Shown here in pieces: positions 1,688 through 52,771 of a stretch of DNA of 64,000 nt. Under the pieces are notes generated by a model. The model worked only from the letters and a program-made list of their open reading frames with translations, was not told where the DNA came from and searched no databases. Within the stretch, counting starts at the first letter, position 1. Every line of letters starts with the position of its first letter. Source of the DNA: a virus. Both the position numbers and the translations under genes were made by a program. The stretch is from IMG/VR virus record IMGVR_UViG_3300045988_155830, positions 1 through 64,000 of that record; one strand, written 5' to 3'.

Positions 1688-2070
1688 TGAAATCAAATAT
1701 AGACTTAACATCAAATGAGATGTTTAGTCGGGAATCTGTGTCACTTCAATTATATGGTTTACAGTGGGATATGTCAAAAGTGGCTATTACCAAAAACGAC
1801 AGTGATTTAATTCCGAAATTTGAGGGTATCAGAACAGGAGATAAAAGATGTAGAGAACTAAAAGAATTGTGCGAAAGAGAAAGCACCGGAGATTATTGTG
1901 ATTGCTGTGGTTCTTATCTTAAAACAATTCCGTGGGATAGAACTTATGGATTGTGTAAGAAGTGTATGGCATATTACGCTAAAGAGGATTGGGCAAAAGA
2001 AGATTTACCCTGGGGTAAGTCACAAGAAATGAGAGGACAGATGGGAACAAATCCGTTATTTTGGGATTAA
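1684..2070 (+). CDS. hypothetical Cys-rich (zinc-finger-like) protein
   Basis: ATGA start/stop overlap with the upstream gene; CDCCGS...CKKC motif. Confidence 0.5.
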   Translation: MMKSNIDLTSNEMFSRESVSLQLYGLQWDMSKVAITKNDSDLIPKFEGIRTGDKRCRELKELCERESTGDYCDCCGSYLKTIPWDRTYGLCKKCMAYYAKEDWAKEDLPWGKSQEMRGQMGTNPLFWD

Positions 2071-2100
2071 AAATAATATTGAGAAAATTCAAAAATATTA

Positions 2101-2129
2101 TTGACATTCTGGCATACATATGATATACT
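2101..2129 (+). promoter_or_regulatory. sigma-70-type promoter (TTGACA-17-TATACT) upstream of the integrase
   Basis: TTGACA at 2101-2106 and TATACT at 2124-2129, separated by 17 bp. Confidence 0.5.
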
Positions 2130-2170
2130 ATCCATAGTAAATGATTTACTACACAGGAGGTAGCGAAATA

Positions 2171-3124
2171 ATGAATACAAACACAGTAAAAATCACACCA
2201 TTATTCCAGAAAGTCGGAATTGACATTGTTGAATTTCCACAACAGGATAAAGCAACGAAATTAAAGAAAGATGGAACGCCAAAAAATATTGTGTGCAACA
2301 AAAAGAAAGGCAAGAAATCAGAAGCTTATGCTATTGAAATTCCTGATATTAAGAAGTTAATAGATTTCTTTTATCAAAATGAAATGTGGCAACATTATTT
2401 GATTTTTGTTTTGTCCTGTAATATGGCTCGCCGTATTGGTGATACACTTACTTTGACTTGGGAGCATTTCTTTTATCCGACAACTGGTGCGATGAGAAAT
2501 GACTTGCTTGAAATCGTAGAGGACAAGACCGACAAGCTCGCAAATCCTCATATCAATTCAGCCTGCAAAAAAGCAATTCTGCTTTATATTGAAAAAACAG
2601 GTATCAATCCTGCCGAAAACAATTATAAGAATTATGTTTTTGTGCAGACCAGCGGAAACTATAAAGGTAGAGTTATTACTGATGATGGCTACCGTAAAGG
2701 CTTGAAAAAGGCTGCTGTTCAAGTTGGTATTGAGTATAACATTGGAACTCATAGTCCTCGTAAAACTTTTGGTATGATTAGTAGGATGTTGCATCCAAAT
2801 GATTATGATAGTATGGAACTCCTTCAGACTATCTATAATCATAGCGATACCAAAACAACAAACCACTATATCGGATTAACAAAGAAGAAGATTGACACCT
2901 ACTATAATGATATGGGTTCATTTTTTGATGATTATATCACAGGTGATAAAACATATATGGAAGTTGCAGAGCAGCCCGTAGTAAGTATTGATACTAATTC
3001 TTTGAGAGATATTATCAAAGAGGCATATAAAGCCGGAGCAGAAAATGCAGATAACACCGACCCTGTTATTCACATTGATGCAATCAACAAAATTATCGGT
3101 ATGATTGAAAGAGTGGCAAAGTAA
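2171..3124 (+). CDS. tyrosine site-specific recombinase / phage integrase
   Basis: ARRIGD (box I Arg), HSPRKTFG (H-x-x-R) and a C-terminal NHY(I) tyrosine motif, matching the R-H-R-Y catalytic signature; RBS GGAGG precedes ATG 2171. Confidence 0.6.
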   Translation: MNTNTVKITPLFQKVGIDIVEFPQQDKATKLKKDGTPKNIVCNKKKGKKSEAYAIEIPDIKKLIDFFYQNEMWQHYLIFVLSCNMARRIGDTLTLTWEHFFYPTTGAMRNDLLEIVEDKTDKLANPHINSACKKAILLYIEKTGINPAENNYKNYVFVQTSGNYKGRVITDDGYRKGLKKAAVQVGIEYNIGTHSPRKTFGMISRMLHPNDYDSMELLQTIYNHSDTKTTNHYIGLTKKKIDTYYNDMGSFFDDYITGDKTYMEVAEQPVVSIDTNSLRDIIKEAYKAGAENADNTDPVIHIDAINKIIGMIERVAK

Positions 3125-3330
3125 TGGATAAAAATGATTATGAAAATCACGAAGTTAAAGTCCAAATTAGAGAATATCTCGGATGTATATATAATGCTTG
3201 CCCGGAACTCCGCATAGGGCAAATAATGGTTAATGCAGCAGTAAAGGGTGGATGGACTCAAGGAGATATATTCTATTGTTCTGATGAAATTCTATTAAAA
3301 GGTTTGAAAATTTTATGGGATGAGGTGTAA
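3124..3330 (+). CDS. hypothetical protein (68 aa)
   Basis: ORF whose start overlaps the integrase stop. Confidence 0.35.
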   Translation: MDKNDYENHEVKVQIREYLGCIYNACPELRIGQIMVNAAVKGGWTQGDIFYCSDEILLKGLKILWDEV

Positions 3331-3359
3331 ATATAATTTATATTCTTATTCATAAGACT

Positions 3360-3737
3360 GTGAATAATGAAATATCAAAACATTTCGCAGTTAATAAAGA
3401 AGCTCAAAACCTTATGTGGAATGAATACGATGAAGTTCGTAAAAATTCTATTGATAAGGTATCTGGCAATCGTGGCGGTGATTGGTGTGAGATTATATAT
3501 TCCGATAAGTCAAAGGAAACTTGGAGTATATACCCTGTTGATATTCCAAAGACAGAGAAAATCTGTGTAACTTATAAGACAAGAACAGACATTGTATATT
3601 TCATCACTAAAAAAGAAATTACCGTTGATAATTTTTTCATATATCAATATGATATAAACAAAAGTGAAACAATTAAACTTGGTAAAGGTAATAATCCAAT
3701 TTTACTGGAGCAGAAGTATATAAAAAATATTTCTTAA
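3360..3737 (+). CDS. hypothetical protein (GTG start)
   Basis: 125-aa ORF from the track; a nested 67-aa ORF at 3367 is judged spurious. Confidence 0.35.
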   Translation: MNNEISKHFAVNKEAQNLMWNEYDEVRKNSIDKVSGNRGGDWCEIIYSDKSKETWSIYPVDIPKTEKICVTYKTRTDIVYFITKKEITVDNFFIYQYDINKSETIKLGKGNNPILLEQKYIKNIS

Positions 3738-3763
3738 TTTTAGAAACAATATTGAGAAAACCA

Positions 3764-3792: not shown

Positions 3793-3941
3793 TATTATAG
3801 TAACAGATTTACTATAATTTATGGGCTGGAAGGAGCATTAAAAGATAGGAATTATAAGTCCACACATAATTACACACATATTATAATAAAGTTAATCCAG
3901 CCTATGAAGTTACATATTAAAGCCATAAGGTGGTATGGATT

Positions 3942-4325
3942 ATGCTTAATAAGACTAACTTAAATGAATACCCACGCTGCGGCGAAATTTGGATGTGCTA
4001 TCTGACTTCTAAAGATGGTAGTATTCAGAGTGGATATAGACCTGTTTTTATTCTCTCTAATGACAAAAACAATACATATAGCACTACACTTAACATAATT
4101 CCGTTGACTTCTAAAATGAATAAAAGAAAGTTGCCGGTACACGTTGAGTTGTGGAATTATCAAAAGTATGGACTCAAGACACCGAGTACATTGCTTGTAG
4201 AACAGATTACAACAATTACTATTGAATGTCTTGATAAATGTATTGGAAAAGTAAGCGATAAAGAAACATTATGTAATATTAGTAATGCTATCGCTATTCA
4301 ATTTCCTGTGATGGTAACAGTTTAA
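3942..4325 (+). CDS. hypothetical protein
   Basis: ATG 3942 with AGGTGG 7 nt upstream; the track's ORF begins at GTG 3930. Confidence 0.5.
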   Translation: MLNKTNLNEYPRCGEIWMCYLTSKDGSIQSGYRPVFILSNDKNNTYSTTLNIIPLTSKMNKRKLPVHVELWNYQKYGLKTPSTLLVEQITTITIECLDKCIGKVSDKETLCNISNAIAIQFPVMVTV

Positions 4326-4343
4326 AAACATTATTGAAAAGTC

Positions 4344-4372
4344 TTGACAGATAACTCTTAACTTGCTATAAT
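4344..4372 (+). promoter_or_regulatory. sigma-70-type promoter TTGACA-17-TATAAT
   Basis: TTGACA at 4344-4349 and TATAAT at 4367-4372. Confidence 0.55.
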
Positions 4373-5394: not shown

Positions 5395-5490
5395 CAGGAA
5401 ATATAGGCTGTTTCGGCAGCCTATATAAAAATCCTTTTAGAAATAATATTGAGAAACACCAATATAATAGTAAGAAAGCAGGTGGTTAAA

Positions 5491-8541: not shown

Positions 8542-8546
8542 TAAAT

Positions 8547-9478: not shown

Positions 9479-9507
9479 TTGACAAATGGGGATATGTATG
9501 CTATTAT
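9479..9507 (+). promoter_or_regulatory. sigma-70-type promoter TTGACA-17-TATTAT; the conserved motif lies downstream in the 5' UTR
   Basis: TTGACA at 9479-9484 and TATTAT at 9502-9507. Confidence 0.5.
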
Positions 9508-9559
9508 ATGAGTACAATAAAAACCGTATTGAGAAATACGCAAAAGAGAGGTTAATAAA

Positions 9560-10179: not shown

Positions 10180-10548
10180 ATGAGTGAAGAAACTAAATTT
10201 CTAATAGGTGAAAAAGCGGAAATACTATATACAGAGGTTTTTGACTTGACAACAAATAGACAACATTATCCTGTTAAGTTTCGCAGACTTGCCGACAAAT
10301 TACAAGAATATACACTTGATATACATAGTGATATTATGGATGCGAATTCATATCCAACTGATACGTTAAACCATAAGCAGAAAAGGTATGACTTACAAAC
10401 AAGTGCAATAACAAAGTGCAATAAACTTGCTTCTTTAGTAAAATATAGTTTACACGCTCATTTAATAAGTTTTAGTACAAGCGAGAAGTTGATAGCGTTG
10501 ATACACGATGTAAAATTTATGGCTCTCGCTTGGAGAAAGCAAACTTAA
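10180..10548 (+). CDS. avd: DGR accessory variability determinant (Avd)
   Basis: 122 aa, sitting between target and TR; internal YPVKFRRL...IMDANS and C-terminal LIALIHDVKFMALAWRK match the bAvd four-helix-bundle pattern as I recall it. Confidence 0.6.
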   Translation: MSEETKFLIGEKAEILYTEVFDLTTNRQHYPVKFRRLADKLQEYTLDIHSDIMDANSYPTDTLNHKQKRYDLQTSAITKCNKLASLVKYSLHAHLISFSTSEKLIALIHDVKFMALAWRKQT

Positions 10549-10569
10549 TATTGTGGGTTATATGCTGTT

Positions 10570-10649
10570 GCTCGTAACGTTTGCTATGTCAATTCCAACG
10601 GCATTCTTAACTGGAATGATTGTGACTATGCCTATGGTGTGCGTCCGTT
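10570..10649 (+). repeat. DGR template repeat (TR), non-coding
   Basis: Near-identical to VR1 and VR2; rich in AAC/AAT/TAT codons in the VR frame; lies between avd and the RT; the overlapping ORFs 10553..10771 and 10639..10848 are spurious. Confidence 0.8.
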
Positions 10650-10763
10650 CTGGTGGATTAGTGAGGTTTATAGACCACTTTTGTGGTCACAAAGAGTACA
10701 CCACTACATCAAAAGAGCATATAACCCTTCTCATAGAAAGTGGGATAAATACAAAAGATTATT

Positions 10764-12176
10764 ATGGATGATTTTCAGACCCTCGTTGATTTTGAAAATC
10801 TCTATAATTCTTACCGAACTTCTATGCGAGGTAAAGGTAAGAAATTGAGTGCGGCGAAGTTCGATGTTATGGCACTTGAAAACCTTTATGTGATGAAGAA
10901 ACAACTCATTAACCATACATATAGGATTTCACCGTATTCAGAGTTTATTGTAACAGAGCCAAAGAAAAGAATAATCAAATCAGGTTCATTTCGAGATAAG
11001 GTATTACAACATTGCTTATGTGATTATGTATTATTGCCAACTATGAAAGACCGTTTTATAAAGGACAATTATGCAGGTCAAATTGGTAAAGGAACATTAT
11101 TCGGACTAAATCGTTTGTCAGAAAATTTACATAATTTTTATGACAAATATGGTAGTGATGGATATATACTAAAATGTGATATAACCAAATTCTTTTATAG
11201 TATCAACCACGATATTATGAAAGAGAAGATAAGAGAAAATTTTTCGGATGAAGATATTCAATGGATTTGTGATAGTTTTATAGATAGTGTTGATGGAGAT
11301 GGGCTACCTCTTGGAAATCAAAGCAGTCAAGTATTTGCCCTGATATTCCTCAACGGACTTGACCATTATATTGTCGATGAGCTTGGATGTAAATATTATG
11401 GCAGATATATGGATGACTTTTATTTACTATCTAATGATAAAGAGTATCTAAAAGAATGTCTTATTAAAATCAAAGAGTATTTAGCTAACTTAAAATTAAC
11501 GCTTAATAACAAGACTGAAATTGTTTCTATGAGTAAAGGTATTAGATTTCTTGGTTTTCATACATATTTGACCGAGCAAGGTAATGTTATAAGAAAACTA
11601 AATGGAGATAACAAAAGACAAGTTAAAAAGCGTTTAAGAAAGTACACAAAGTTAGTAGTACAAGGAAGAATGAAACGAGAAAAGTTCAATGAGATTTACT
11701 GTTCTTGGCGGAATCACGCATCTCACGGTAACTGTTTCAAGTTGATTTATGGAATGGATTTGTTTGTGGAAAATTTATTTAATGAAGAAAAACCTGAAAT
11801 AAGGGTTATTATTGCCGGTAGTAGAGACTTTAATAACTACGAACTATTGGAAAAGCACCTTAATAAATTCGTCAAAGAACACCCTAATAATAAGATAACT
11901 ATTATAAGCGGTGCTGCTCGTGGTGCAGACCAACTCGGAGAAAGATATGCCAGAGAAAAGTGCATATTATTAAAGAGGTTTTCGGCAAATTGGGAACAAT
12001 TCGGTAAAAGGGCAGGTTATATTAGAAACATTCAAATGCTCGACTATATAGATGCATCTACCTGCGATTCATATGTGTTTGCATTTTGGGATGGAAAGAG
12101 TAAAGGAACAAAACAAATGATTGATAGTGCTAAAAAACGAAATATACCGTATCAAATTGTAGCATTTCAATCTTAA
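10764..12176 (+). CDS. DGR reverse transcriptase with an extra C-terminal SLOG/DprA-like domain
   Basis: YMDD motif; PLGNQSSQVFALIFLNGLD matches the DGR-specific [LI]GxxxSQ motif; C-terminal IISGAARGADQLGE resembles the Rossmann-like SLOG/DprA fold. Confidence 0.85.
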   Translation: MDDFQTLVDFENLYNSYRTSMRGKGKKLSAAKFDVMALENLYVMKKQLINHTYRISPYSEFIVTEPKKRIIKSGSFRDKVLQHCLCDYVLLPTMKDRFIKDNYAGQIGKGTLFGLNRLSENLHNFYDKYGSDGYILKCDITKFFYSINHDIMKEKIRENFSDEDIQWICDSFIDSVDGDGLPLGNQSSQVFALIFLNGLDHYIVDELGCKYYGRYMDDFYLLSNDKEYLKECLIKIKEYLANLKLTLNNKTEIVSMSKGIRFLGFHTYLTEQGNVIRKLNGDNKRQVKKRLRKYTKLVVQGRMKREKFNEIYCSWRNHASHGNCFKLIYGMDLFVENLFNEEKPEIRVIIAGSRDFNNYELLEKHLNKFVKEHPNNKITIISGAARGADQLGERYAREKCILLKRFSANWEQFGKRAGYIRNIQMLDYIDASTCDSYVFAFWDGKSKGTKQMIDSAKKRNIPYQIVAFQS

Positions 12177-12197: not shown

Positions 12198-12226
12198 TTG
12201 ACAAACATCTAAATATATGATATAAT
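12198..12226 (+). promoter_or_regulatory. sigma-70-type promoter TTGACA-17-TATAAT
   Basis: TTGACA at 12198-12203 and TATAAT at 12221-12226. Confidence 0.55.
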
Positions 12227-12234: not shown

Positions 12235-12630
12235 AATCAAGAGTGCTGACCTAAAAGGTCAGCAATTCTAAATGCATTAAGAAATAATATTGAGCAACGC
12301 AAAAATAAATAAGCAACAATCGAGTAGTGAACAGCAAAGCCTTACGAGGATATGCCACAATGTACGAACCATTCAGAAAGACCGTACAATCACTGAATGG
12401 GTGGCAGGAATTAGAACTAATGGTGTAACGGTAGCATAGCGGCGGTGAGGTCGTGGCTCTGGTTCGACTCCAGAATGTTCGACCAAAAAGAAAGTTCCTT
12501 AAAAGTATCGGCGTTTGAAAAAGCAATGTAAAAATAGAAAGTAATTAAGAGAGATAATTGTTGGTACGTTGTGCGCAGACTAATCCAGCCATTGCTCCCA
12601 TAGGTGCGAGACCTATGGCTCGATTTTTAG
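12235..12630 (+). ncRNA. candidate structured ncRNA (promoter to terminator) containing a tRNA-like 3' element
   Basis: No + strand ORF of 60 aa or more; long-range stems (ccattcag/ctgaatgg, ggcgg/ccgcc); the tRNA-like stretch at 12431-12485 has a D-arm (tggtgtaacggtagca), a T-arm (tctggttcgactccaga), then atgttcg-ACCA. Confidence 0.35.
12598..12628 (+). terminator. rho-independent terminator candidate
   Basis: Hairpin ccatagg-tgcgaga-cctatgg followed by ctcgaTTTTT. Confidence 0.55.
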
Positions 12631-14578: not shown

Positions 14579-14887
14579 ATAATAGGCAGACAGGGTTTGC
14601 AAATAACAGCCTGGAATTAAATCTGTCGGAAGTCCGAAAAATTTGTATGCCTTTAAATCTATTAAAATGTTGTTTAAAGAGTATCGATGTTTACTTCGGT
14701 ATTCGTTAATATAGGCTTGGGCGGTAGGCATAGCGAAGTACAAGATAAATAGAGCCGCCATATAAACAGAAAGCAATTTAATTTTTTTACATAAAAATTG
14801 TGAGTAACGGCTGATTTGGCAGCCGAAGTGTGAGACATATATATTGTACTCATAAAAAACTATGTAGGTTAGTGGATAATATTTGAG

Positions 14888-15188
14888 GTTTTGGAACTGT
14901 ATTAAATTACATAGTTACCAAACGTATTGGCTATTAGTCAAATCAGTAACACGGTTTTGGAACTGTATTAAATTACATAGTTACCAAACGGTAAGCATAT
15001 GTACCCTGATTTACAACATTGTTTTGGAACTGTATTAAATTACATAGTTACCAAACACACATATAAACATAAATATATGTATGAAAGTTTTGGAACTGTA
15101 TTAAATTACATAGTTACCAAACAACCAGGGGACCTTATAGAATATGTAAAAGGTTTTGGAACTGTATTAAATTATATAGTTACCAAAA
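14888..15188 (+). CRISPR. CRISPR array: 5 x 36-bp repeat GTTTTGGAACTGTATTAAATTACATAGTTACCAAAC with 4 spacers (30-31 bp)
   Basis: Repeats at 14888, 14954, 15021, 15087 and 15153; repeats 1-4 are identical, and the gene-proximal repeat 5 carries 2 substitutions; the repeat is an imperfect palindrome; an AT-rich leader lies upstream. Confidence 0.9.
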
Positions 15189-15206
15189 ATACGAAGGAAA
15201 GTTAAA

Positions 15207-16553
15207 ATGACAAACACATATATAATTGCAAGAAAAATTCAACTGATACCAGTAGGAAAGAAGGAAGAAGTTAATCGAGTTTATACATATATTAAGGATG
15301 GTATAAAATCACAAAATATGGCAATGAACCAGTATATGAGTGCTTTATATACTTCAACTATTATGGAAATGACAAAAGATGATAGAAAAGAATTAAGCAG
15401 ACTATTTGGTAGAATTAGTACAAGCAAATTAGGAAGTGCTTATGATAAAACAATAGAGTTTGCAAAGGGGCTACCTATGGGTGGTGCAATTCAGCAAAAA
15501 GTCAAAAAAGATTTCGATAATGCAATGAAAAAAGGACTTAAATACGGCAAACTATCTTTACCATCATATCGTGATAGCAATCCTCTTTTGGTACACGTTG
15601 ATTATGTTAGACTTCGTTCTACGAATCCACATTTGGATAACGGCTTATATCACAACTATAGTAGCCACGAAGAATTTTTAAATCACTTATATAACGAAAA
15701 ACTTGAATTGTTTATTAAGTTCGCAAACAAAATTACATTCAAACTTGTTTTAGGCAATCCACGAAAATCAGCAGAAATCAGAAGTGTTTTCAAAAATATT
15801 TTTGAGGATTATTATCACATAAAAGGAAGCTCCATTGAACTTGACGGAACGAAAATTATCTTAAATATGTCGATTGAAATTCCGAAAAAGAAAGTTGTTC
15901 TTGACGAAAATGTTGTTGTTGGCGTGGATTTAGGAATCGCAATTCCTGCCGTATGTGCCTTGAATACCAATGACTATGTAAGAAAAAGCATAGGTTCACG
16001 AGATGATTTTTTGAGAGTAAGAACACAGATTAAATCTCAAAGGGACAGGCTTAAAAGGAAGTTGAAATATACAAGGGGCGGTCACGGCAGAGCGAAGAAA
16101 ATGCAGGCTATGGATAGGTTTACTGATTATGAGAAAAATTGGGTACAAACCTACAACCACAAAGTTAGCAAAGATGTCGTTGATTTTGCGTTGAAAAACA
16201 AGGCTAAATATATAAATCTCGAATGTTTAGACGGTTTCAGTAAGGATGATAAAAAGAAAAATTACTTATTAGCGAACTGGTCTTATTACCAGTTGCAACA
16301 ATACATAAAATACAAAGCCGAAAAATATGGAATTGTGGTTAGATTTGTAAATCCCGCTTATACCTCTCAAACCTGTAACTGTTGTGGTAATTTAGAAGAA
16401 GGACAAAGAGTTAAGCAATCAGAATTTATCTGTAAAAATCCAGAGTGTAAAAATTTTGGGAAGAAAATCAATGCTGATTTCAATGCGGCTCGCAACATCT
16501 CAATGTCAACAGACTTTGTTGAGAAAGAAGAAGAAAAAGAAAGAATTACATAA
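15207..16553 (+). CDS. compact type V effector (TnpB/Cas12f-like RuvC nuclease, 448 aa)
   Basis: RuvC-I VGVDLGIAIPAV; RuvC-II YINLECLDG; zinc finger CNCCGN...CKNPECKNFG; RuvC-III INADFNAARNI; ATG 19 nt after the last repeat with RBS GAAGGAAAG; no tnpA nearby. Confidence 0.75.
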   Translation: MTNTYIIARKIQLIPVGKKEEVNRVYTYIKDGIKSQNMAMNQYMSALYTSTIMEMTKDDRKELSRLFGRISTSKLGSAYDKTIEFAKGLPMGGAIQQKVKKDFDNAMKKGLKYGKLSLPSYRDSNPLLVHVDYVRLRSTNPHLDNGLYHNYSSHEEFLNHLYNEKLELFIKFANKITFKLVLGNPRKSAEIRSVFKNIFEDYYHIKGSSIELDGTKIILNMSIEIPKKKVVLDENVVVGVDLGIAIPAVCALNTNDYVRKSIGSRDDFLRVRTQIKSQRDRLKRKLKYTRGGHGRAKKMQAMDRFTDYEKNWVQTYNHKVSKDVVDFALKNKAKYINLECLDGFSKDDKKKNYLLANWSYYQLQQYIKYKAEKYGIVVRFVNPAYTSQTCNCCGNLEEGQRVKQSEFICKNPECKNFGKKINADFNAARNISMSTDFVEKEEEKERIT

Positions 16554-16567
16554 AGCAGCATAAATTT

Positions 16568-35208: not shown

Positions 35209-35236
35209 TTAGATAAAGTTGAAAAGAGGTGAGAAT

Positions 35237-37267: not shown

Positions 37268-38203
37268 ATGAAACGATGGATTTTAACAATAGAGGAATTT
37301 AATACAAAACCTTTAATTTATGCTGAATCTGCTGAAAAAGCAAGACAGGTTTTTAGCTCTGAAAATGTTACAGATATTCAACCATATACAGATATGTCCT
37401 ATCTTGATACTATTCAAGAGTTGAAAAGCAAATCTGAACTTTTAGCAATACACAAAATTCCTCAAAATAGAATAAAAGAATGGTATAAGTATCAATTACA
37501 AGATGGTATGTTGCGATTTAGGCTATATAAAGACAATACCGATGATTTGTATTATGACATTGTTGAATATCAGTTTATGTCAAATGATAGTTTAGTTTAT
37601 CCTATAACATTTACTTATTCTAATCCTGCCGAAGTTTACGAATTATTTTTTACAGCACCGCTTTCTTGTGAAGTGGTTTCATATAGATTTTACGGTCAGC
37701 CAAAATTATCAAGACCAGCAGAATTAAAAGGAGTAAAGCAAAGTTTTTCAGCGGATTGGATTTCAAACAAGTGCAAGTGTCAATGTGTTGTAAAAGGTGA
37801 TGACCTTTGGATTAAACACAGGGATTTCTTTTCACCCTTACATAGACCATCTGACCCAAGTGACAATGGAACGCCATTGGTATATCGTGCCAAAAAGTAT
37901 TTTGGCATTGATTTAAGTAGCAAAGAAAAGTTTTGTTATTCAGATTGTTGGGGCGAAATCATATTACGAAATGAGGCGTGGATTGTATTCCGAAATTTTG
38001 GTCAGGTAATACGCCGAGATAGACAGTCACCAATTCAAAATATGATTAAAGCATTTTCAAATAGTGATTTTTGTATTAAACACTCAATATCACAATACGA
38101 TTTGAGCAATGGTGATTGGGAAAGATTTTTTGAAAATGTATGTTGTAATTATAAAGCGCAGGTTGATATACTTGGCGCTTCGTTGAAAAATGAAAGGAGT
38201 TGA
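37268..38203 (+). CDS. hypothetical protein (311 aa)
   Basis: Long ORF. Confidence 0.5.
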   Translation: MKRWILTIEEFNTKPLIYAESAEKARQVFSSENVTDIQPYTDMSYLDTIQELKSKSELLAIHKIPQNRIKEWYKYQLQDGMLRFRLYKDNTDDLYYDIVEYQFMSNDSLVYPITFTYSNPAEVYELFFTAPLSCEVVSYRFYGQPKLSRPAELKGVKQSFSADWISNKCKCQCVVKGDDLWIKHRDFFSPLHRPSDPSDNGTPLVYRAKKYFGIDLSSKEKFCYSDCWGEIILRNEAWIVFRNFGQVIRRDRQSPIQNMIKAFSNSDFCIKHSISQYDLSNGDWERFFENVCCNYKAQVDILGASLKNERS

Positions 38204-39264
38204 TTATATGTCTTTCTATTACAGCAATGAAATTGTTTTTAGAGGACATCCCTGACAAAGTTTGCGACCAAATAAGTGATGCACTTCTTGATGCTTTTTT
38301 GAAACAGGATAAACATAGCAGATGCGGCATTGAAACTGTCGGTGGCAAAGGAAAAATATTCGTAACAGGTGAAGTAACTTCAAGAGCATTAGTCAATGTA
38401 ACAAACATTGTTAAAGAAGTTCTTCGTGATGTTGGATATGACCCAAATAAATATGAAGTTATTGATAACATCGGTAAACAGTCACCTGATATTGCGCAGG
38501 GCGTTGATGATGGAGGTGCTGGAGACCAAGGAATGATGTTCGGGTATGCGTGCAGAGATACAGTGGATTACATTCCTACGGCAATGGCTATCCTTCAAGA
38601 TTTATCGGCATTCTATGATAGACTTGTCAAAATTGATGACAGATTTCTCCCTGATGGCAAGGCACAGATAACAGGATTCTATGATGAAAATAACAAATTG
38701 GAGTATATAAATGATTTTATTATCTCATATCAGAACAAAGAAACAAATCGAGCAGAGACAGATAAAATTCTTACTGACTACTGTGAGACACTTTGTTCAA
38801 ATTACGGAATTGCAATCAGAGAGTTTCACATCAATCCGACAGGTAAATTCTTAATCGGTGGTTTTGATGGAGATGCAGGTCTAACCGGCAGAAAAATTGT
38901 AGTTGACAATTATCAGTCTTTTGCAAATGTCGGAGGTGGTGCATTCTCTGGTAAAGACCCAACAAAAGTTGACCGTTCAGCAGCGTATAAGGCAAGACAG
39001 CTTGCAATCGAATGTCTTGATACATCGCCCGATGTCAACTGGTGTGAAATTCAGATTTCTTATGCAATAGGTATGGATAAGCCTCTTGGAATTTATGCAA
39101 AGACAGATAAGGGAGTAATTGATATACCGGATTGTTTCTATGATGAATGCACACCAAAAAGGATTATCGAAGATTTGCATTTGATAGATGGAACATTTAA
39201 GTTTAATGATACTGCAAAGTTTGGTCACTTCGGTCATTCCGAATTTCCGTGGGAGTCAAGATAA
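38200..39264 (+). CDS. metK: S-adenosylmethionine synthetase (MetK), with a probable +1 indel near the N-terminus
   Basis: GGGAFSGKDPTKVDRSAAY signature and PDKVCDQISDALLDA. An ATG at 38208 with an AGGAG RBS opens another frame encoding ..FRGHP, which meets the canonical GHPDK only if one C of the CCC run at 38250-38252 is removed. Confidence 0.85.
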   Translation: MIICLSITAMKLFLEDIPDKVCDQISDALLDAFLKQDKHSRCGIETVGGKGKIFVTGEVTSRALVNVTNIVKEVLRDVGYDPNKYEVIDNIGKQSPDIAQGVDDGGAGDQGMMFGYACRDTVDYIPTAMAILQDLSAFYDRLVKIDDRFLPDGKAQITGFYDENNKLEYINDFIISYQNKETNRAETDKILTDYCETLCSNYGIAIREFHINPTGKFLIGGFDGDAGLTGRKIVVDNYQSFANVGGGAFSGKDPTKVDRSAAYKARQLAIECLDTSPDVNWCEIQISYAIGMDKPLGIYAKTDKGVIDIPDCFYDECTPKRIIEDLHLIDGTFKFNDTAKFGHFGHSEFPWESR

Positions 39265-42502: not shown

Positions 42503-43702
42503 ATGAGTAAAGTTAAGGTCAAAGTAGTAATAGGTAGTAATTATGGAGATGAAGGAAAAGGATTGGCAACACATTTTTTCTCTCAATCCGAGAAAAATAA
42601 GTGCTTAAATGTTTTATTTAATGGAGGATGTCAACGAGGTCATACTGTCGAACTTAAAGATGGCACAAGGCATATTTTCCATCATTTTGGAAGTGGCACA
42701 TTTGATAATGCTCATACATACTTTGACCAAAACTTTATGGTTAATCCTGCAATCTTCATTCAAGAATATAATGAGCTTAAAAAATATGGCATCAAACCTA
42801 TATGTATGATTTCTCCTAAATGTAGAGTAAACACTATGTATGATATGTTTATCAATCAAATTGTTGAAATACATAGAGAGAATAAAAGACACGGTTCTTG
42901 TGGTTATGGTATTTGGGAAACACAAAAAAGGTATGATGATGGTGTTTTTGCATTAGATTATAACCAACTATCTCATATGAACGATAAAGATGTTGTAGAT
43001 TATCTACATAATATAGCAAATGTTTATTTACCTAAAAAATTATTTGAATACGGAATAACAGAAATTCCACAAGAGTATCAAGAGTTGATAAAGTCTAAAG
43101 GGTTAATTGAACATTTCGTTAGTGATTTAAGAGAAATGCAATATATAACTTTTATGTGTGATTTCGATAGAATCCGAAATAAGTATAATACCATTATATT
43201 TGAGGGTGCGCAAGGTCTTGAACTTGATGAGAATAATTTAAAAGCATTGCCATACATCACAGCAAGTAATACTACTTCTTATACACCCATTCAAAGAGTT
43301 AATGATTTTGATTGTGATGTTGAAATTTGTTATATTACAAGGTCTTATTTTACCAGACACGGAGCAGGAACATTGCCAACAGAATGTGATAAGTCGGATA
43401 TAAATGAAGATATAACTGACCTTACAAACTGTTATAACGATTACCAGCAAACAATAAGGTATGGAATGTTTGATTATGATGAGTTTATCAATAGAGTGAA
43501 AACTGATATACAAAGAGCAAGAGAAAAAATCAGCGGAACAAAAACTTCTGTTATGATTACTCATTTGAATTATACGGATAATGAAATTGCAGGTAATTGT
43601 AAAATTCAAGATTTGTTAAAACATTTCGATAATATATATTTATCTAATACAAAATTTTCAGAAGATATAAAGAGAACCAACAAAGGAAGTACAATACATT
43701 GA
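42503..43702 (+). CDS. adenylosuccinate synthetase-like enzyme (PurA/PurZ family)
   Basis: N-terminal VVIGSNYGDEGKG P-loop typical of PurA; 399 aa, shorter and more divergent than housekeeping PurA. Confidence 0.65.
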   Translation: MSKVKVKVVIGSNYGDEGKGLATHFFSQSEKNKCLNVLFNGGCQRGHTVELKDGTRHIFHHFGSGTFDNAHTYFDQNFMVNPAIFIQEYNELKKYGIKPICMISPKCRVNTMYDMFINQIVEIHRENKRHGSCGYGIWETQKRYDDGVFALDYNQLSHMNDKDVVDYLHNIANVYLPKKLFEYGITEIPQEYQELIKSKGLIEHFVSDLREMQYITFMCDFDRIRNKYNTIIFEGAQGLELDENNLKALPYITASNTTSYTPIQRVNDFDCDVEICYITRSYFTRHGAGTLPTECDKSDINEDITDLTNCYNDYQQTIRYGMFDYDEFINRVKTDIQRAREKISGTKTSVMITHLNYTDNEIAGNCKIQDLLKHFDNIYLSNTKFSEDIKRTNKGSTIH

Positions 43703-44728: not shown

Positions 44729-45350
44729 TAGTGCAAATATAAAAATTGAAAATGGAAAGGTTACTATTGACCTTAATCCAGAGCAACTTGCAGCATTAAC
44801 TTGTTCTAATAAAGTTGAATTATCAACACTAAAATCAGGAGATGAATTTAAGCTCGGAGATGAAGTATTCATTGTAATGGAACATACTGATAAAGGAACA
44901 AGAGTTATTTCAAAAGAGTTTGCTTATAAAGAAGTAAAATTCGGCGATAATTCAAATTGGAATACATCTCCTATTCGTAGAATGCTCAATAATGAGTATT
45001 TCGAGAAGATTGCAGCTATCATCGGCGGAGAAAACAATATTATCTCTATGGATAGAGACCTCACTTCTCTCGATGGTTTGGATGATTACGGAACTTGCAC
45101 CGATAAGGTAAGTCTTTTAACCGCTATGGAATATGCAAAGTATCATAAGATTCTTGGCTTGAAATCCAACTATCCTGATTGGTGGTGGCTTATTACTCCT
45201 GCATCCACTCCGAGTAATAACTACGCTCGTCGCGTTTGCTATGTCGGTTCCAGCGGCATTCTTGACCAGAATGGCTGTGACTGTGCCTTTGGTGTGCGCC
45301 CGTTTTTAAATCTTGAATCTTCTATCTCGGTTCTTTTGAATAAGGATTAA
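44712..45350 (+). CDS. DGR target protein 2 (paralog of target 1) with a C-terminal VR
   Basis: The C-terminus YARRVCYVGSSGILDQNGCDCAFGVRPF is homologous to target 1; the nucleotide sequence aligns to TR. Confidence 0.55.
   Translation: MQITIDSANIKIENGKVTIDLNPEQLAALTCSNKVELSTLKSGDEFKLGDEVFIVMEHTDKGTRVISKEFAYKEVKFGDNSNWNTSPIRRMLNNEYFEKIAAIIGGENNIISMDRDLTSLDGLDDYGTCTDKVSLLTAMEYAKYHKILGLKSNYPDWWWLITPASTPSNNYARRVCYVGSSGILDQNGCDCAFGVRPFLNLESSISVLLNKD
45225..45304 (+). repeat. DGR variable repeat VR2 (remote)
   Basis: 80 bp versus TR: 13 mismatches, 9 at TR adenines and 4 at non-A positions; the 3' flank shares atcttgaat..cttc with the VR1 flank. Confidence 0.6.
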
Positions 45351-45781
45351 CGACTATCTATCCATTCACGGAATTGTGACAATACGATTGTTTCAAGACG
45401 AGAAGTTTGAAAAGCATTTTTTCTTGACAAGAGCATTTCAAAACGCTTAAATCGCTGATTTGCTAAATCAATAGGAAGTCTGGAAAGACTACTCATTTCT
45501 TCCGCAGATTTAACACCTAATTCTTTAAAAATAATCATAGGCGCAAGAATTCTAATGGCAAGGTATCTTGGAAATTCAGGATTCGCCATTCCAAAGATTT
45601 TCAAGATACATTCGGCAACGGAAAGAGTATTATCATATAAAGATTTAGAATTGTCAATTAAGTGTTGTAAATCATAAAGAGTAGCAATAGCATTTATATC
45701 AACTGGCAACCGTGAAATATTTGCATCAATGAGTAAATCCCACGCTAAATTTCGTATATGTTTATATTCTTGTTCTGTCAT
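45347..45781 (-). CDS. hypothetical protein (minus strand)
   Basis: 144-aa ORF, co-directional with the repressor module. Confidence 0.5.
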   Translation of the reverse strand: MTEQEYKHIRNLAWDLLIDANISRLPVDINAIATLYDLQHLIDNSKSLYDNTLSVAECILKIFGMANPEFPRYLAIRILAPMIIFKELGVKSAEEMSSLSRLPIDLANQRFKRFEMLLSRKNAFQTSRLETIVLSQFREWIDSR

Positions 45782-45842
45782 AAAAACACCTCATAGAGAT
45801 TGTTCCCTATGAGGTGTAAAATATAACGAATATATTATATTG

Positions 45843-46454
45843 TTAATAACTACCTTTTTGTTTATAAAGTTTAACAATATCATTTTCCCATGCAGTTTTG
45901 CGATGGTATTGTTTCCATTTTAAGTATTTTTTATAACGATAAAGAGAGGCTTCTGCTGATAATCCAAAAACATTTTGAACATCTAAAGGCGATTGAACGC
46001 TTAGATATTCATAAAGAGGAAACGGAGATAATATTGTTGCGGCAAAATAATCAGCTTCATTTTCAAATTCAGAATTTTCTGTGCACATAAAACTATTCTC
46101 CGATAATTTTGAATAAGCAGATGCAGAGTGGTGTTTGCAAAGAATATGCCCTATTTCGTGACTACAAGTCCATAATTGCCGACCAAAATTGTTATTGCCT
46201 TGTGTTGACTGATTGCAAAGAATTAAATATCTATCCTGTGAAATATCATAATGAGTGCAACCAGACCCGCTTTCGCACATTTGGATAACATCATTTATTG
46301 AACAATTATTTATTTTAGCGAATTTCTGATATGACATATATCTACAATTCGGAATGAGTTTAATTACTTCTTGAATATCTAAAGGAAATGTGATTTGTGG
46401 CAACATAGAATATATTTTCAACACCAAATTGTTTATATAAATATATCTAATCAT
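45843..46454 (-). CDS. ImmA/IrrE-family zinc metallopeptidase
   Basis: HEIGHILCKHH contains HExxH. Confidence 0.7.
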   Translation of the reverse strand: MIRYIYINNLVLKIYSMLPQITFPLDIQEVIKLIPNCRYMSYQKFAKINNCSINDVIQMCESGSGCTHYDISQDRYLILCNQSTQGNNNFGRQLWTCSHEIGHILCKHHSASAYSKLSENSFMCTENSEFENEADYFAATILSPFPLYEYLSVQSPLDVQNVFGLSAEASLYRYKKYLKWKQYHRKTAWENDIVKLYKQKGSY

Positions 46455-46807
46455 TAGGTGTTATTATCCTCCTCAAAGGCGTAATCGAAACCAACTTTAA
46501 GCATTCGCATCATTCGTTCTCTATCTTGTTGAGACATTTTTTGTCTTGCTCTTTGAAAAGATATAATATCATCATCTCCGAGTAATTTAGAAGCAGAACC
46601 TTTTATATCTGTTCTACCGAGTAAATAATCGACTGACACATCGAAGTATGTGGCAACCTTGATTATTTTATCAACGGATGGAGAATAAGTTGATTTCCAT
46701 TTTTGAATTGAAGATAATCCTACTCCTAAATCACTTTCAAGTTTGTTGACAGAAATACCTTTTTCAATACATAATTCTTTGATTCTCTGATATAATACAG
46801 TTTCCAT
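46454..46807 (-). CDS. XRE-family helix-turn-helix transcriptional regulator (CI/Cro-like)
   Basis: N-terminal QRIKELCIEKGISVNKLESDLGVGLSSIQKW is a typical HTH_3 domain. Confidence 0.8.
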   Translation of the reverse strand: METVLYQRIKELCIEKGISVNKLESDLGVGLSSIQKWKSTYSPSVDKIIKVATYFDVSVDYLLGRTDIKGSASKLLGDDDIISFQRARQKMSQQDRERMMRMLKVGFDYAFEEDNNT

Positions 46808-46835
46808 AACTTTCTCCTTATTTGGTAGTGATTTC

Positions 46836-46875
46836 TTGAAATTGTGTTGACATCAAGAAAATAATCTGATATAAT
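46836..46875 (+). promoter_or_regulatory. divergent promoter/operator: TTGACA-17-TATAAT with a 7-bp inverted repeat TTCTTGA..TCAAGAA flanking the -35
   Basis: TTGACA at 46847-46852 and TATAAT at 46870-46875; the palindrome arms lie at about 46836-46842 and 46853-46859. Confidence 0.5.
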
Positions 46876-46963
46876 GAGTCATAGTTCAAGAAAATACAAC
46901 TAAATTTAATTGTATTATACGCTGAATTTTCTTAATTGTCAAGATGATATGGAGGATTAAATA

Positions 46964-47221
46964 ATGTATTACGCAACATATAAAGGAATAGGAATGAGTG
47001 ACATTACTGCATTTGAGTCGGAGCAGGAAAGAAATGATTGGGTTGAATTTAAGGACGATTTTAGTTTACTCTGCGGAGTGACAAAAGAAAATTCAACTTT
47101 TGAAAGACAAATACTCACGAACAAAAGAGAAATTGAAAGAGTAGTTAATAACAAAAAAATTAAGAAAATTATAGATACATATAACCCGAAACAATGGTGG
47201 TTTTTAAGGAGTATAATATAA
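46964..47221 (+). CDS. hypothetical protein (85 aa)
   Basis: RBS GGAGG. Confidence 0.45.
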   Translation: MYYATYKGIGMSDITAFESEQERNDWVEFKDDFSLLCGVTKENSTFERQILTNKREIERVVNNKKIKKIIDTYNPKQWWFLRSII

Positions 47222-48015
47222 TGGCAATTAAAGGTGCAATCATAGGAGATATTATAGGTTCTCAATATGAGTTTCGTAAGCCTATGGAATTTGACAATAA
47301 AACGGCGATTTTATTATCAGAAAACTGCAAATTTACAGATGATACGGTGTTATCATTGGCAACTAAATATGCTATTAAACACAATATAAGTTTTGCCGAA
47401 GCCTATAAGTTTTTCGGATTGAAATACATAGATGCCGGATATGGTGGTTCATTTCGTGAATGGCTTAATAGTGATACCAATGAACCTTATGGTAGTTATG
47501 GCAACGGTTCTGCTATGAGGGTATCTTTTGTTGCAGATTATTATGATAGTATGCAAGATGTTGTTGAGAATGCAAGCAAAACAGCAGAATGTACTCATAA
47601 TCATCCTGAAGGAATAAAGGGTGCTGTTGTAGTAGCAATGTGTATTTGGATGGCAAAACACGGAATTTCAAAAGAAGATATTTTGAATTATGCTATTGGT
47701 CAATATCCAAAAGATAAATACGCATATAGTCCTGAACTCACTCTTGATGAAATTCGAGAAATATATCATTGGAATGATAATTGCCAAGGTAGTGTACCTG
47801 CTGCAATTAGATGTGTATATGAAGCAAATACTTATACAGAATTTATAAGAAATGTGTTGAGCTTGAAATGTGATGCAGATACATTATGTGCAATAGGTGG
47901 TGGAATTGCAGAAGAACTATTTGATAATAGAAAAGATGAAATTCTTCAATCAGCCGACCAAATATTAGGAAGGTATCTTGATGACTATTTAATGAAAGTT
48001 TTTTCTGAAAATTAG
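47221..48015 (+). CDS. ADP-ribosylglycohydrolase-family protein (ARH/DraG-like)
   Basis: N-terminal GAIIGDIIGSQYEF and GNGSAMR match the ARH signatures. Confidence 0.65.
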   Translation: MAIKGAIIGDIIGSQYEFRKPMEFDNKTAILLSENCKFTDDTVLSLATKYAIKHNISFAEAYKFFGLKYIDAGYGGSFREWLNSDTNEPYGSYGNGSAMRVSFVADYYDSMQDVVENASKTAECTHNHPEGIKGAVVVAMCIWMAKHGISKEDILNYAIGQYPKDKYAYSPELTLDEIREIYHWNDNCQGSVPAAIRCVYEANTYTEFIRNVLSLKCDADTLCAIGGGIAEELFDNRKDEILQSADQILGRYLDDYLMKVFSEN

Positions 48016-48034
48016 AAATAATATTGAGAAACTA

Positions 48035-50073: not shown

Positions 50074-51392
50074 ATATAAAAATGCCTATGCCGGTTGAAT
50101 TTGCATTAAACAGATTGCATTCAAATGGTTATGAAGCTTATATCGTTGGTGGATGTGTACGTGATAGTATTATAGGAATTCAACCTCACGACTGGGATAT
50201 TTGCACATCTGCTTTGCCAGAGCAAGTCCAAGAAATATTCAAAGACTTAAAAGTAATTCCCACTGGTTTACAGCACGGAACAGTAACCGTTGTTTTTGAA
50301 GATGGCGATTGCAAGCAATGTCTTGAAATCACTACTTACAGAATTGACGGAGAATATAAAGATAACCGACACCCTGAAAATGTTAAGTTTGTATCTGACC
50401 TATCACTTGATTTAATGCGCAGAGATTTTACAATCAATGCTATGGCTTATAATGATAAAGAAGGCATCATTGATATGTTTGGCGGAGTTGAAGATATTGA
50501 AATGGGCTGTTTGAGATGTGTAGGAAATCCAGATGATAGATTTCAAGAAGATGCGCTCCGCATTATGAGAGCTATTCGCTTTGCAATTAGATATGATTTG
50601 CAAATTGATGATGAGATTATTAAATCAATTCAGAAAAACAAGATACTTTTGAAGAATGTATCTGTTGAAAGAATTTGTGCTGAATTGACAAAGATACTTG
50701 AATCAAATATCGGCAATGACGGTTCAAAGAAAAACAGGATTGAACTGATTGGTTATCTTATTGATTTTTTACAGGTAGTTCTTGATTACAAGATTGATTT
50801 TGATGAGCAAGAGGTTTACAACAGATTGGCTTTTGTTGAGCCAAATGTTCCATTAAGACTCGCAATCTTGTTTGATACTACTAATATTATGAATATCCTT
50901 AAAGATTTAAGGTTTTCAAACGATGTTGTATTTGCAGCACACGCTATCCGTGAATATGGTCATAAAATTCTTGACGAGAAAGATAAGCGGAGTAGCAAAT
51001 CAAGCATTGCGGCAGCAGTCAATAATCTGCATATAGGAGATAGAGAAGATAATGTTGAAGATGATAGCTCATTGCGTTACTATGCGAGACGGTCATTAAA
51101 AAACATTCATTCTTGCTCATTTGAATCCATAATATCGTTTGCAAAGGCTTATGTCAATGATGAATATATGTTTGTTGCATTAAACATTCTTCAAAGGCAA
51201 ATGCAATTTTGTAAAGAGAATGACGTATATTGCCTTCAGTATCTTGCCGTAAATGGCAATGATATTATGCAAGCCGGATTTGAGGGTAAGGATATAGGAG
51301 ATATATTAAATAAACTTCTCGATATGGTTATGCGAGAAGATGTCCGAAATAACAGAGAAGAATTGTTGGCTGCCGTATCAAAATTTAGATAA
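50067..51392 (+). CDS. tRNA nucleotidyltransferase (CCA-adding enzyme), class II
   Basis: GGCVRD, DWDI, RRDFTINAMAY and ERIxxE-like motifs. Confidence 0.8.
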   Translation: MVDIKMPMPVEFALNRLHSNGYEAYIVGGCVRDSIIGIQPHDWDICTSALPEQVQEIFKDLKVIPTGLQHGTVTVVFEDGDCKQCLEITTYRIDGEYKDNRHPENVKFVSDLSLDLMRRDFTINAMAYNDKEGIIDMFGGVEDIEMGCLRCVGNPDDRFQEDALRIMRAIRFAIRYDLQIDDEIIKSIQKNKILLKNVSVERICAELTKILESNIGNDGSKKNRIELIGYLIDFLQVVLDYKIDFDEQEVYNRLAFVEPNVPLRLAILFDTTNIMNILKDLRFSNDVVFAAHAIREYGHKILDEKDKRSSKSSIAAAVNNLHIGDREDNVEDDSSLRYYARRSLKNIHSCSFESIISFAKAYVNDEYMFVALNILQRQMQFCKENDVYCLQYLAVNGNDIMQAGFEGKDIGDILNKLLDMVMREDVRNNREELLAAVSKFR

Positions 51393-51405
51393 GGCGAGAT
51401 AAATA

Positions 51406-51732
51406 ATGAACTATAAATGTCAACAATGTGGTTGCGAAAAAGTTTATGCCAAACCAAGCGGCAGACGAATGGGTGTATATTGTTCAGATTGTAATAGTTG
51501 GATTTGTTGGACTACATATTCAAAGATGACAGAGCTTTATAAACAGATTGAAGAACAAGATTTGAATGATAAAGTCGCAATCAGAAAGATATTCAAACGC
51601 AGTGGAGTTACAAGAATGAACTGCTCCAAATGCGGATGTTTGCTATATAATTCGTGTTATTCAAGACCCGAAGGTCAATTCGATTTAGTTAATGCTAAAT
51701 TCTGTCCGAATTGTGGCAGAGAATTGATTTAA
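51406..51732 (+). CDS. hypothetical multi-CxxC zinc-ribbon protein
   Basis: Four CxxC pairs. Confidence 0.5.
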   Translation: MNYKCQQCGCEKVYAKPSGRRMGVYCSDCNSWICWTTYSKMTELYKQIEEQDLNDKVAIRKIFKRSGVTRMNCSKCGCLLYNSCYSRPEGQFDLVNAKFCPNCGRELI

Positions 51733-51797
51733 TTTTTTTAACGATTAGAAACCGTATTGAGCAACACGAAACAAATAACACATAAAGAGGTAAAAGA

Positions 51798-52654
51798 ATG
51801 TATAAGAATCCATTTAATTATACGGGTGCAAAATTCAAGTTGCTCCCACAAATATTGCCTCTTTTCCCGGACAAAATTAACACATTTGTTGACTTGTTCG
51901 GGGGAGTGGAGAATTAACATTCAATACACAAGCAGAGCATTACATATATAATGAGAAATCAAAACAACTGGTTAATATTTTCAATAATCTTGATGATGAT
52001 TTCATAATAGATGTTGAAAAGGTTATTCAACAATATGGTTTATCTAAAGAGAATAAACAAGGATTTCTTGATTTGAGAACATATTATAATACAAATCTTG
52101 GAACAATGTCTGATAGAGAAAATGCCATAATTTTGTATTGTTTATTGACTCACGCTTTTAATTACCAAATAGCATTTAATTCAAAAGGTGAGTATAATAT
52201 GCCATCTGGTAAAGGCAGGAGTTATTTTAGTCCACAACTTAAAGAAAAGCTGACTGCTTATATAGATAAGAATAAACAAAATGATATAAGGTTTTTATCA
52301 TATGATTTTGTTGATATAAATATTCCGTCTTTAGTTTCTTCTGATGATGCTTTTATATATGTTGACCCACCATATTACATAACAGTTGGTGCATATGAAA
52401 GAGATTATTTTTGTAAGTGGTCGGAAGAATACGAGAACAAACTACTTGCACTTCTTGATGATTTATCTACAAAGGGTTATAAATGGGCATTTTCAAATGT
52501 TTTTGAACATAAAGGTAAATCTAATGATTTATTAAAAAGTTGGGCAAGTAAATATACAATTCATTATCTCAATATGGACTATAAGAATTGTAATTATCAT
52601 ACAAAAGATAAGTCTGCAAATAGTAGTGTTGAGGTTTTAATTACTAACTATTAG
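51798..52654 (+). pseudogene. Dam-class N6-adenine DNA methyltransferase with a -1 frameshift in a G5 run (around 51903-51907)
   Basis: Frame 1 reads MYKNPFNYTGAKFKLLPQIL...VDLFGG then stops; the continuing frame reads (G)SGELTFN...YVDPPYY; one extra G restores DLFGGSGELTF (FxGxG) followed by DPPY. Confidence 0.6.
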
Positions 52655-52771
52655 AAACAGTATTGAGTAATAGAGGTTAAGTTATGAGCCATTTATGCTT
52701 GTGGATTTCAAGCAACAAGGTATTTCATTGAAACATACGAAGAAACAGATAATTAAATTAGGAGAATATAT

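Follow-up and report, generated by a model that had tools for sequence, protein, structure and literature searches.

YonO-type enzymes are minimal single-chain relatives of the cellular multi-subunit RNA polymerases. For YonO of phage SPbeta, Forrest et al. (2017) left open both the DNA sequence that the enzyme recognizes and whether it needs a cofactor (PMC5467207); no later answer was found in the literature searched. In Thermus phage P23-45 the single-subunit enzymes of the two-barrel type rely on conserved DNA motifs that precede their start sites; other elements that invite comparison are the promoters of T7-like polymerases, the stoperators of Cluster A mycobacteriophages (L5 gp71; PMC9283540) and the UP elements that accompany strong promoters of bacteria and of early phage genes. 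The element analyzed here is a 23-bp motif that recurs, mostly between genes, in a 64,000-nucleotide stretch of viral DNA (positions 1 to 64,000 of IMG/VR record IMGVR_UViG_3300045988_155830; hereafter the window). The sequence on either side of the window shows that the DNA belongs to a temperate phage of the SPbeta type whose host is a Gram-positive bacterium of the gut; near-identical contigs (90-136 kb) are present in IMG/VR and ENA, and the 120-kb source contig is k127_119850 of ENA ERZ919629. The motif is tentatively read below as the promoter, or promoter core, of the phage's own YonO-family two-barrel RNA polymerase.

A repeated, strand-specific motif

With up to three mismatches allowed, TTAGAAAYAATATTGAGMAAnAC matches the window 14 times against 0.34 expected, and no more than 2 matches were obtained in any of 100 dinucleotide shuffles. 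The conserved multi-copy motif reported in a preliminary description of this DNA is thus real, and the chance distribution that was to be checked as its refutation does not account for it. All 14 strong copies lie on the + strand, which is the gene strand of the window. Scores from a weight matrix derived from these copies are bimodal, with 14 sites at 23-33 bits and a weak class of three or four at 9-12 bits, the best of which is at 4322; nothing on the - strand of the window exceeds 8 bits. The conserved span covers 23 contiguous positions with an information content of ~29 bits, arranged as two blocks (positions 1-8 and 11-20) with two free positions between them; A3, A5-7, T11, T13, T14, G15, A16, G17, A19 and A20 are invariant and C23 nearly so. 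Pattern scans of whole viral and genome collections returned only single matches of the kind expected by chance.

The sites listed in the preliminary description are correct, with coordinates that were off by 0-15 nt, and its partial copy at 9446 proved to be the motif-like -35 region of a sigma-A promoter (TTCAAAAACGTTATTGACA). By database gene calls on the public contigs, 13 of the 14 copies are intergenic, and non-coding DNA makes up only ~13% of the window; the remaining copy, at 58611, lies within coding sequence as had been observed. The reported association with stop codons is genuine: the stop codon of the upstream gene is supplied by the motif itself at 2067, 35506, 48012 and 52651, and at the weak copy 4322. 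The motif is self-complementary only in AATATT and has no G+C-rich hairpin followed by a U tract, and is therefore not an intrinsic terminator, in agreement with the earlier judgement. Hairpins, where present, are separate elements 5' of the motif, 8-14 nt away at several copies, and some of them are terminator-like. The copies and their immediate surroundings are as follows (ORF, open reading frame; RBS, ribosome-binding site).

2067-2089, + strand: copy TTAAAAATAATATTGAGAAAATT, 23.3 bits; its TAA terminates ORF 1684-2070; sigma-A -35 box at 2101, 14 nt 3'
3740-3762, + strand: copy, 30.9 bits; 2 nt past the stop codon of ORF 3360-3737 and 4 nt ahead of the -35 box at 3764
4322-4344, + strand: degenerate copy TTAAAAACATTATTGAAAAGTCT, 10.9 bits; on the stop codon of a PemK-like gene, adjoining the -35 box of a perfect sigma-A promoter (4344-4372)
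5437-5459, + strand: consensus copy, 33.0 bits, without a sigma-A promoter; start codon 31 nt 3'; strong hairpin (5401-5426) 10 nt upstream
9517-9539, + strand: copy, 24.7 bits, at about +3 of sigma-A promoter 9479-9507; RBS 6-8 nt and ATG 20 nt downstream
12278-12300, + strand: copy, 31.0 bits, ~50 nt downstream of sigma-A promoter 12198-12226 and directly after hairpin 12244-12264; followed by a 370-nt leader and an SPFH-domain gene
19732-19754, + strand: copy, 31.4 bits; 5 nt 5' of the -35 box of a perfect sigma-A promoter (19757-19785)
20038-20060, + strand: promoter-less copy, 27.6 bits, ~250 nt downstream of the promoter at 19757; followed by a CT-rich structured leader and a tRNA-Arg/Leu cluster; heads a 15-kb block with no other promoter
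35155-35177, + strand: copy, 26.8 bits; 3 nt past the stop codon of the NAD-ligase gene; the -35 box at 35180 follows after 5 nt
35506-35528, + strand: copy, 30.9 bits, without a sigma-A promoter; on the stop codon of ORF 35219-35509
35718-35740, + strand: promoter-less copy, 29.5 bits; RBS 5 nt downstream, ATG 15 nt past position 23; heads a ~9.6-kb operon (methyltransferases, PurZ-like gene)
48012-48034, + strand: copy, 26.8 bits; its TAG is the stop codon of ORF 47194-48015; 4 nt ahead of the -35 box (48036)
51745-51767, + strand: consensus promoter-less copy, 33.0 bits; 12 nt past a stop codon, ATG 30 nt after position 23; opens a ~20-kb block that runs into replication genes
52651-52673, + strand: promoter-less copy, 25.3 bits; its TAG terminates ORF 52073-52654; strain breakpoints (52679/52692) fall at this copy and at no other
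58611-58633, + strand: copy, 31.5 bits, inside the RNA-ligase reading frame, where it encodes IKNNIEQR; retained also in the intein-less alleles of other strains

Two settings of the copies

The link to gene expression suspected earlier holds in both of its settings, beside sigma-70-type promoters and directly 5' of an RBS. The + strand of the window has nine credible sigma-A promoters with TG-extended -10 boxes, including those whose -35 boxes (3764, 19757, 35180 and 48036) had already been recognized. In six of the nine the motif or a degenerate copy ends 4-5 nt (once 14 nt) before the -35 box and so occupies about -59 to -37; two have the motif downstream, at ~+3 (9517) and ~+50 (12278), and one, in a repressor switch region, has none. 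The promoter-linked cassettes are paralogous over ~73 nt, and at least four further copies of this kind lie in the flanks of the window. Some motif-linked sigma-A promoters carry a second element 4 nt past the -10 box, a 20-bp palindrome, ATAGTAAATnATTTACTACA, which looks like the operator of a dimeric repressor; it was found at 2134-2153 and 3797-3816 of the window and at 2172, 5494 and 16026 of contig L212 (4 matches against 0.12 expected).

The location and A/T-tract composition of the promoter-linked copies are those of UP elements, and the motif could be such an upstream enhancer of host sigma-A promoters, with the promoter-less copies as relics of cassettes. By our own comparison, 11 of the 14 specified positions match the UP consensus AAAWWTWTTTTnnnAAA, and where promoter-linked cassettes have the motif, relatives at a greater distance show A/T tracts of a generic kind. 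However, the highest scores (33 bits) belong to promoter-less copies, G15 and G17 never vary although the UP consensus has N at these positions, and half of the copies have no core promoter. Promoter-less copies are also kept across strains and, in variant form, in a sister lineage, and one heads the late operon with no sigma-A promoter. The UP-like role proposed in the preliminary description thus fits the six promoter-linked copies in position and composition and leaves the seven others unexplained; taken alone it fails on those seven, and it is accordingly regarded as improbable.

The seven copies with no sigma-A promoter are those at 5437, 20038, 35506, 35718, 51745, 52651 and 58611. In these an RBS begins 5-19 nt past the motif and the start codon follows 15-31 nt past position 23; they more often have the form GAGCAA-YAC-R, and 10-11 of 13 promoter-less copies have a pyrimidine-purine step at positions 23/24. 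They head long blocks with no other promoter, from 20 to 35 kb (20038), from 35.7 to 45.3 kb (35718) and from 51.7 kb onward (51745/52651). Because the RBS is so close, any promoter at these copies must be compact, and one that depends on a -10 box located 17 nt past the motif is excluded; the genes concerned could be served only by a compact promoter of the single-subunit-polymerase type. An alternative-sigma element, which had been among the suggested roles, is discarded on the same grounds, there being neither room for nor conservation of such a -10 box. Reading TTGAGA as the -35 box of a sigma-70-type or alternative-sigma promoter was likewise rejected: no conserved -10 box is present at 15-19 nt downstream, and at five copies a start codon is reached sooner.

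The strand specificity and the short distance to the RBS would also suit a signal that acts in polycistronic transcripts, either a processing site or an A-rich translational enhancer, in a phage that is rich in RNA-processing genes and has hammerhead ribozymes between early genes. However, the copies 5' of sigma-A promoters fall outside the transcripts of those promoters, the motif has no secondary structure, no antisense partner of it exists anywhere in the ~125 kb scanned, and Rfam recognizes no known RNA family over any copy. Twenty bases also far exceeds the recognition sites known for single-strand RNases. An RNA-level role is considered quite improbable. Pairing of the 5' half of the motif with an upstream T-rich stretch was examined and set aside, as that stretch is mostly coding or generic A/T and the folds are weak.

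Many copies lie on the upstream stop codon or within 3 nt of it and several precede a fresh sigma-A promoter, an arrangement that might be expected of a sequence-specific terminator or insulator at the 3' ends of transcription units, acting on the phage polymerase or, with a factor, on that of the host; in P23-45 a 26-nt conserved motif marks the termination sites of the two-barrel virion polymerase. A terminator at +3, or before the RBS of a promoter-less operon, would silence the genes that follow, would be redundant with the strong hairpins already present 8-14 nt 5' of several copies, and would leave the phage polymerase with no identifiable promoter, so that this too is improbable. A recombination site or cassette boundary, also raised in the preliminary description, is highly improbable: a tyrosine recombinase gene adjoins copy 2067 and one cluster of breakpoints (52679/52692) falls at a copy, but ~22 of ~23 strain breakpoints lie away from copies and the motif has no inverted-repeat architecture.

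A YonO-family polymerase and the late operon

Copies of the motif persist on the + strand in the ~20 kb upstream of the window. About 25-30 kb upstream the direction of the genes reverses and the motif reverses with them, the leftward arm having three copies on the - strand (L223 7488, 7022 and 2746). The phage as a whole has about 25 copies. Since the copies flip with gene direction, the motif tracks transcription and not one genome strand, and this excludes roles tied to a fixed strand (Chi-like or Ter-like sites, nick sites, conjugative T-strand signals).

The leftward operon contains the gene for a 947-aa YonO-family two-barrel single-subunit RNA polymerase (L223 3668-6511, - strand, ~25-30 kb upstream of the window start; IMG/VR contig 3300045988_143165) that matches Pfam PF05183 at 5e-8 and has the catalytic sequence ADKDGD. 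It is 38.7% identical over its full length to the YonO homologue of phage c-st, 29% identical over the core to SPbeta yonO (E = 3e-21), and similar over its full length to proteins of Enterocloster phages; a sequence search of the PDB with it gave no matches. Past the polymerase gene come a conserved ORF of ~290 aa, which could encode a cofactor of the polymerase, a non-coding leader with four or five tRNA genes, and then homologues of beta-CASP, ClpP, YonJ-like, HU-like, YonG, YonD and YonB proteins, that is, an SPbeta-type late structural operon.

The order of polymerase gene, non-coding leader and late structural operon is that of SPbeta, where the only mapped YonO start (B. subtilis 168 coordinate 2225998) lies in the intergenic region equivalent to this leader (PMC5467207), and a motif copy heads the leader here as well (L232 8110; L223 2746, - strand; L237 8283), 12 nt after a hairpin and TTT. 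In the next 13 kb beyond this copy neither a further motif nor a consensus sigma-A promoter is found. The leader itself (L232 8130-8260, corresponding to L223 about 2720-2600 on the - strand) contains a hairpin (GAAGGGAAATATAGCCCTT), a CT-rich block (CTCTCATTTCTTTATCTTTCTCTTTTCTTGAT) and a GC hairpin ahead of the tRNA genes; these hairpins and the CT-rich block persist even between lineages that share no more than 64-72% identity in their polymerases. A similar CT-rich leader occupies ~20085-20200 of the window, between copy 20038 and the tRNA-Arg/Leu genes.

Comparison with relatives shows that the motif changes in concert. In a sister lineage (L028/L180; 65-80% DNA identity) the variant TATAAAATGTTAMGAAAA is present at orthologous sites with identical substitutions in every copy; the L028 orthologues of copies 35155 and 35506, the latter at L028 12310, both carry it, and in L180 two perfect variant copies (9601 and 9671) stand on both sides of one sigma-A promoter. 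Enterocloster phage PMBT24, whose polymerase is 37% identical, has ~10 co-oriented copies of a different motif, TTTTAAAAATAAATTTTAA, against 0.05 expected; some precede an RBS, some abut a -35 box, and one directly follows an HU-like gene and heads the late genes. In c-st, AAAATTAAATTAAAAT occurs six times, co-oriented with the genes, and not at all on the opposite strand; copies follow the YonO gene and precede the YonG homologue. Phage phiCD211 gave no YonO hit and has no such multi-copy motif.

If the motif is the promoter of the phage polymerase, expression may be pictured as follows. Early on, host RNA polymerase would fire the strong sigma-A promoters, one of which would drive the polymerase gene. 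The phage polymerase would then bind the 23-bp asymmetric site, alone or with a cofactor (the ~290-aa neighbour or the HU-like protein), and begin RNA at or just beyond the 3' end of the motif, around positions 17-24, where the pyrimidine-purine step usually falls. Its output would comprise the long operons of DNA metabolism and replication as well as the tRNA clusters, and a sub-consensus copy would let it transcribe the late structural operon. Where a copy stands directly 5' of a sigma-A promoter, the two would make up a dual-promoter cassette. The rule of orientation, the high information content, the tight spacing to the RBS and the copies that head promoter-less operons, the late one included, all argue for this promoter reading, as do the lineage-specific co-variation and the parallel motifs in other YonO phages. 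It also comports with the promoters of T7-like phages and of P23-45, which are likewise contiguous, high-information, strand-specific intergenic sites of ~20-23 bp, repeated 10-25 times, specific to a lineage and sometimes placed beside host-type promoters. The polymerase here is, however, unrelated to the T7 family, and many copies stand at a fixed distance 5' of sigma-A promoters.

Several findings weigh against the motif as a polymerase promoter. Six to ten copies are held at a fixed spacing upstream of consensus sigma-A promoters, sometimes on both sides of them, and resemble the UP consensus, a layout that is also typical of operators. In SPbeta, YonO transcribes the late operon only, from a single start, and its promoter sequence is undefined (PMC5467207), whereas here there are ~25 copies, mostly before genes of early or middle type. 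At the late leader the copy departs from the consensus, having A in place of G17. In contigs L234-L236, whose polymerases are 64-72% identical, the motif of the window was not seen in the few early intergenic regions available, and the late-leader spot is ~50% identical while the adjoining downstream hairpin and CT-rich block are far better conserved, so that the actual late promoter may be at another place. The start-site region of an SPbeta-like genome (L226 7760-7950) has no match to the matrix and no multi-copy motif, only a loose TTAAACAATAT. Finally, co-occurrence of such motifs with YonO was sampled in four phage types only.

The asymmetry of the site, its place next to stop codons and the pairs that flank promoters are accounted for equally well by an asymmetric operator of the stoperator kind. 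This reading is less likely but is the main rival, and with it the operator for a phage transcription factor suggested in the preliminary description stays in contention. A phage protein, probably a two-domain monomer, would bind the two conserved blocks ~10 bp apart and block host RNA polymerase in an orientation-dependent manner, both at promoters and in elongation; in lysogeny the long lytic operons would be gated while short promoter-proximal genes stay on, and the unblocked units, with a recombinase and a PemK toxin among them, are plausible lysogen functions. Cluster A stoperators too are asymmetric, number 20-30 copies, occupy promoters and short gaps between genes with an orientation that follows transcription (PMC9283540), and change in consensus with the lineage and with immunity type; the concerted change in the sister lineage fits that pattern. 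Consistent with such a role, the element is temperate (ImmR/ImmA-like module, integrases, ParAB), many copies sit in short intergenic spaces, often on stop codons, and some lie on both sides of sigma-A promoters or at +3 and +50 (L180 9601/9671; 9517; 12278).

However, stoperators measure 13 bp and not 23 bp, Cluster A phages have no polymerase of their own, and no homologue of their repressor was found here, nor any other candidate two-domain repressor: Pfam recognizes no DNA-binding protein among those of the window besides an HTH_3 repressor of 117 aa. At promoters the motif stands 5' of the -35 box and does not overlap it, and several of these promoters have a separate palindromic operator at +1. 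The tight spacing between motif and RBS and the late-operon copy beside the polymerase gene would not be predicted by a stoperator, and analogous motifs are found in other YonO phages.

Two further kinds of operator were rejected. The HTH_3 protein is the ImmR-like repressor of the sole - strand block of the window (45347-46964), which also encodes an ImmA/IrrE M78 peptidase and a 144-aa ORF; its switch region (46807-46964), with a divergent promoter, contains repeats of its own (TCAAGAAAATA twice, with inverted copies) and no copy of the motif. An operator of the ParB/parS or KorB type is excluded by the non-palindromic motif and by its absence near the par genes.

Genome context and significance

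The window encodes ten tRNAs, tRNA-repair enzymes, an NAD ligase, several methyltransferases, a TnpB insertion, an intein-laden RNA ligase and the ImmR/ImmA-like module. Downstream of it come DnaB, DnaG, DnaE, NrdD, an integrase and ParAB, followed by an LPXTG adhesin and conjugation-like genes; the closest cultured relatives by DnaE are C. difficile phiCD211 and C. botulinum c-st. No motif copies occur in the stretch scanned from ~73 to 103 kb. Its part at ~83-103 kb (L205 12097-19041; L218 10708-20628) encodes ParA, ParB, a 1466-aa LPXTG thioester adhesin, a 2551-aa methylase-SNF2 protein, DUF3991-Toprim and DUF3846/DUF4314, a gene set typical of conjugative plasmids, and is free of consensus sigma-A promoters as well.

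Between the divergent arms lies a non-coding region of ~2 kb, a possible origin, with repeated iteron-like hairpins of the form CCCTCAATAATTGAGGGTTT (L223 7700-8250, and just 5' of the late-leader motif copy) whose sequence varies by lineage (e.g. CCCTCTTATTTAGAGGG in L234). A type II hammerhead ribozyme is present at L223 11388-11455 on the + strand (Rfam score 37.5 against a gathering value of 37), and CUGAUGAG...CGAAAC cores recur between early genes in L232, L234, L235 and L237. Within the window, sub-threshold matches to Y RNA-like (YrlA) RNAs surround a conserved 748-aa ORF (16972-19218), at 16755-16865 and 19618-19685, and a tRNA-like fragment (19902-19964) lies between the promoter at 19757 and copy 20038.

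Several loci differ among strains. The TnpB gene (Cas12f-like TNB domain) and its flanks (14579-16563), which lie between tRNA clusters, are missing from two otherwise near-identical contigs and so represent a recent IS insertion. The RNA ligase gene (55652-59011) has two inteins with LAGLIDADG endonucleases, whereas other strains have an intein-less 391-aa allele or an adjoining GIY-YIG gene. At 10764-12176 a reverse transcriptase is fused to an SLOG/YspA-like domain, of which only the SLOG part remains in strains with a ~1-kb deletion (10321-11328). A PurZ-like adenylosuccinate-synthetase homologue (42503-43702) stands near a SAM synthetase and several DNA methyltransferases (38200-39264 and neighbours), a set that hints at modified DNA bases. 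Among the ENA sequences behind L011-L018, the region is found both in contigs of 100-136 kb and in scaffolds that measure 224-517 kb, and four scaffolds terminate ~18 kb beyond the end of the window; the differing sizes may reflect scaffolding artefacts, concatemers or integration. A 1020-aa methylase-helicase gene in L208, L211, L214 and L215, contigs with no motif copies, is 96-100% identical to one upstream of the window and appears to be a mosaic gene common to a different phage backbone.

For the YonO family, the motif is possibly, though with more reserve than its role as a promoter, the first recognizable promoter consensus: in this gut-phage lineage ~25 promoters, many paired with those of the host, would have widened the reach of the polymerase beyond the late genes so that it covers most of the lytic programme, and sister lineages would hold matched variants in the specificity of promoter and polymerase. 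The ~25 near-identical sites, the variant set of the sister phage and the weaker variant at the late operon form a ready set of templates with which to test transcription in vitro and the swapping of specificities, and, if the promoter reading is true, a compact orthogonal pair of promoter and polymerase for Gram-positive hosts could follow. Should the motif be stoperator-like instead, a silencing strategy described in mycobacteriophages would extend to phages of Firmicutes.

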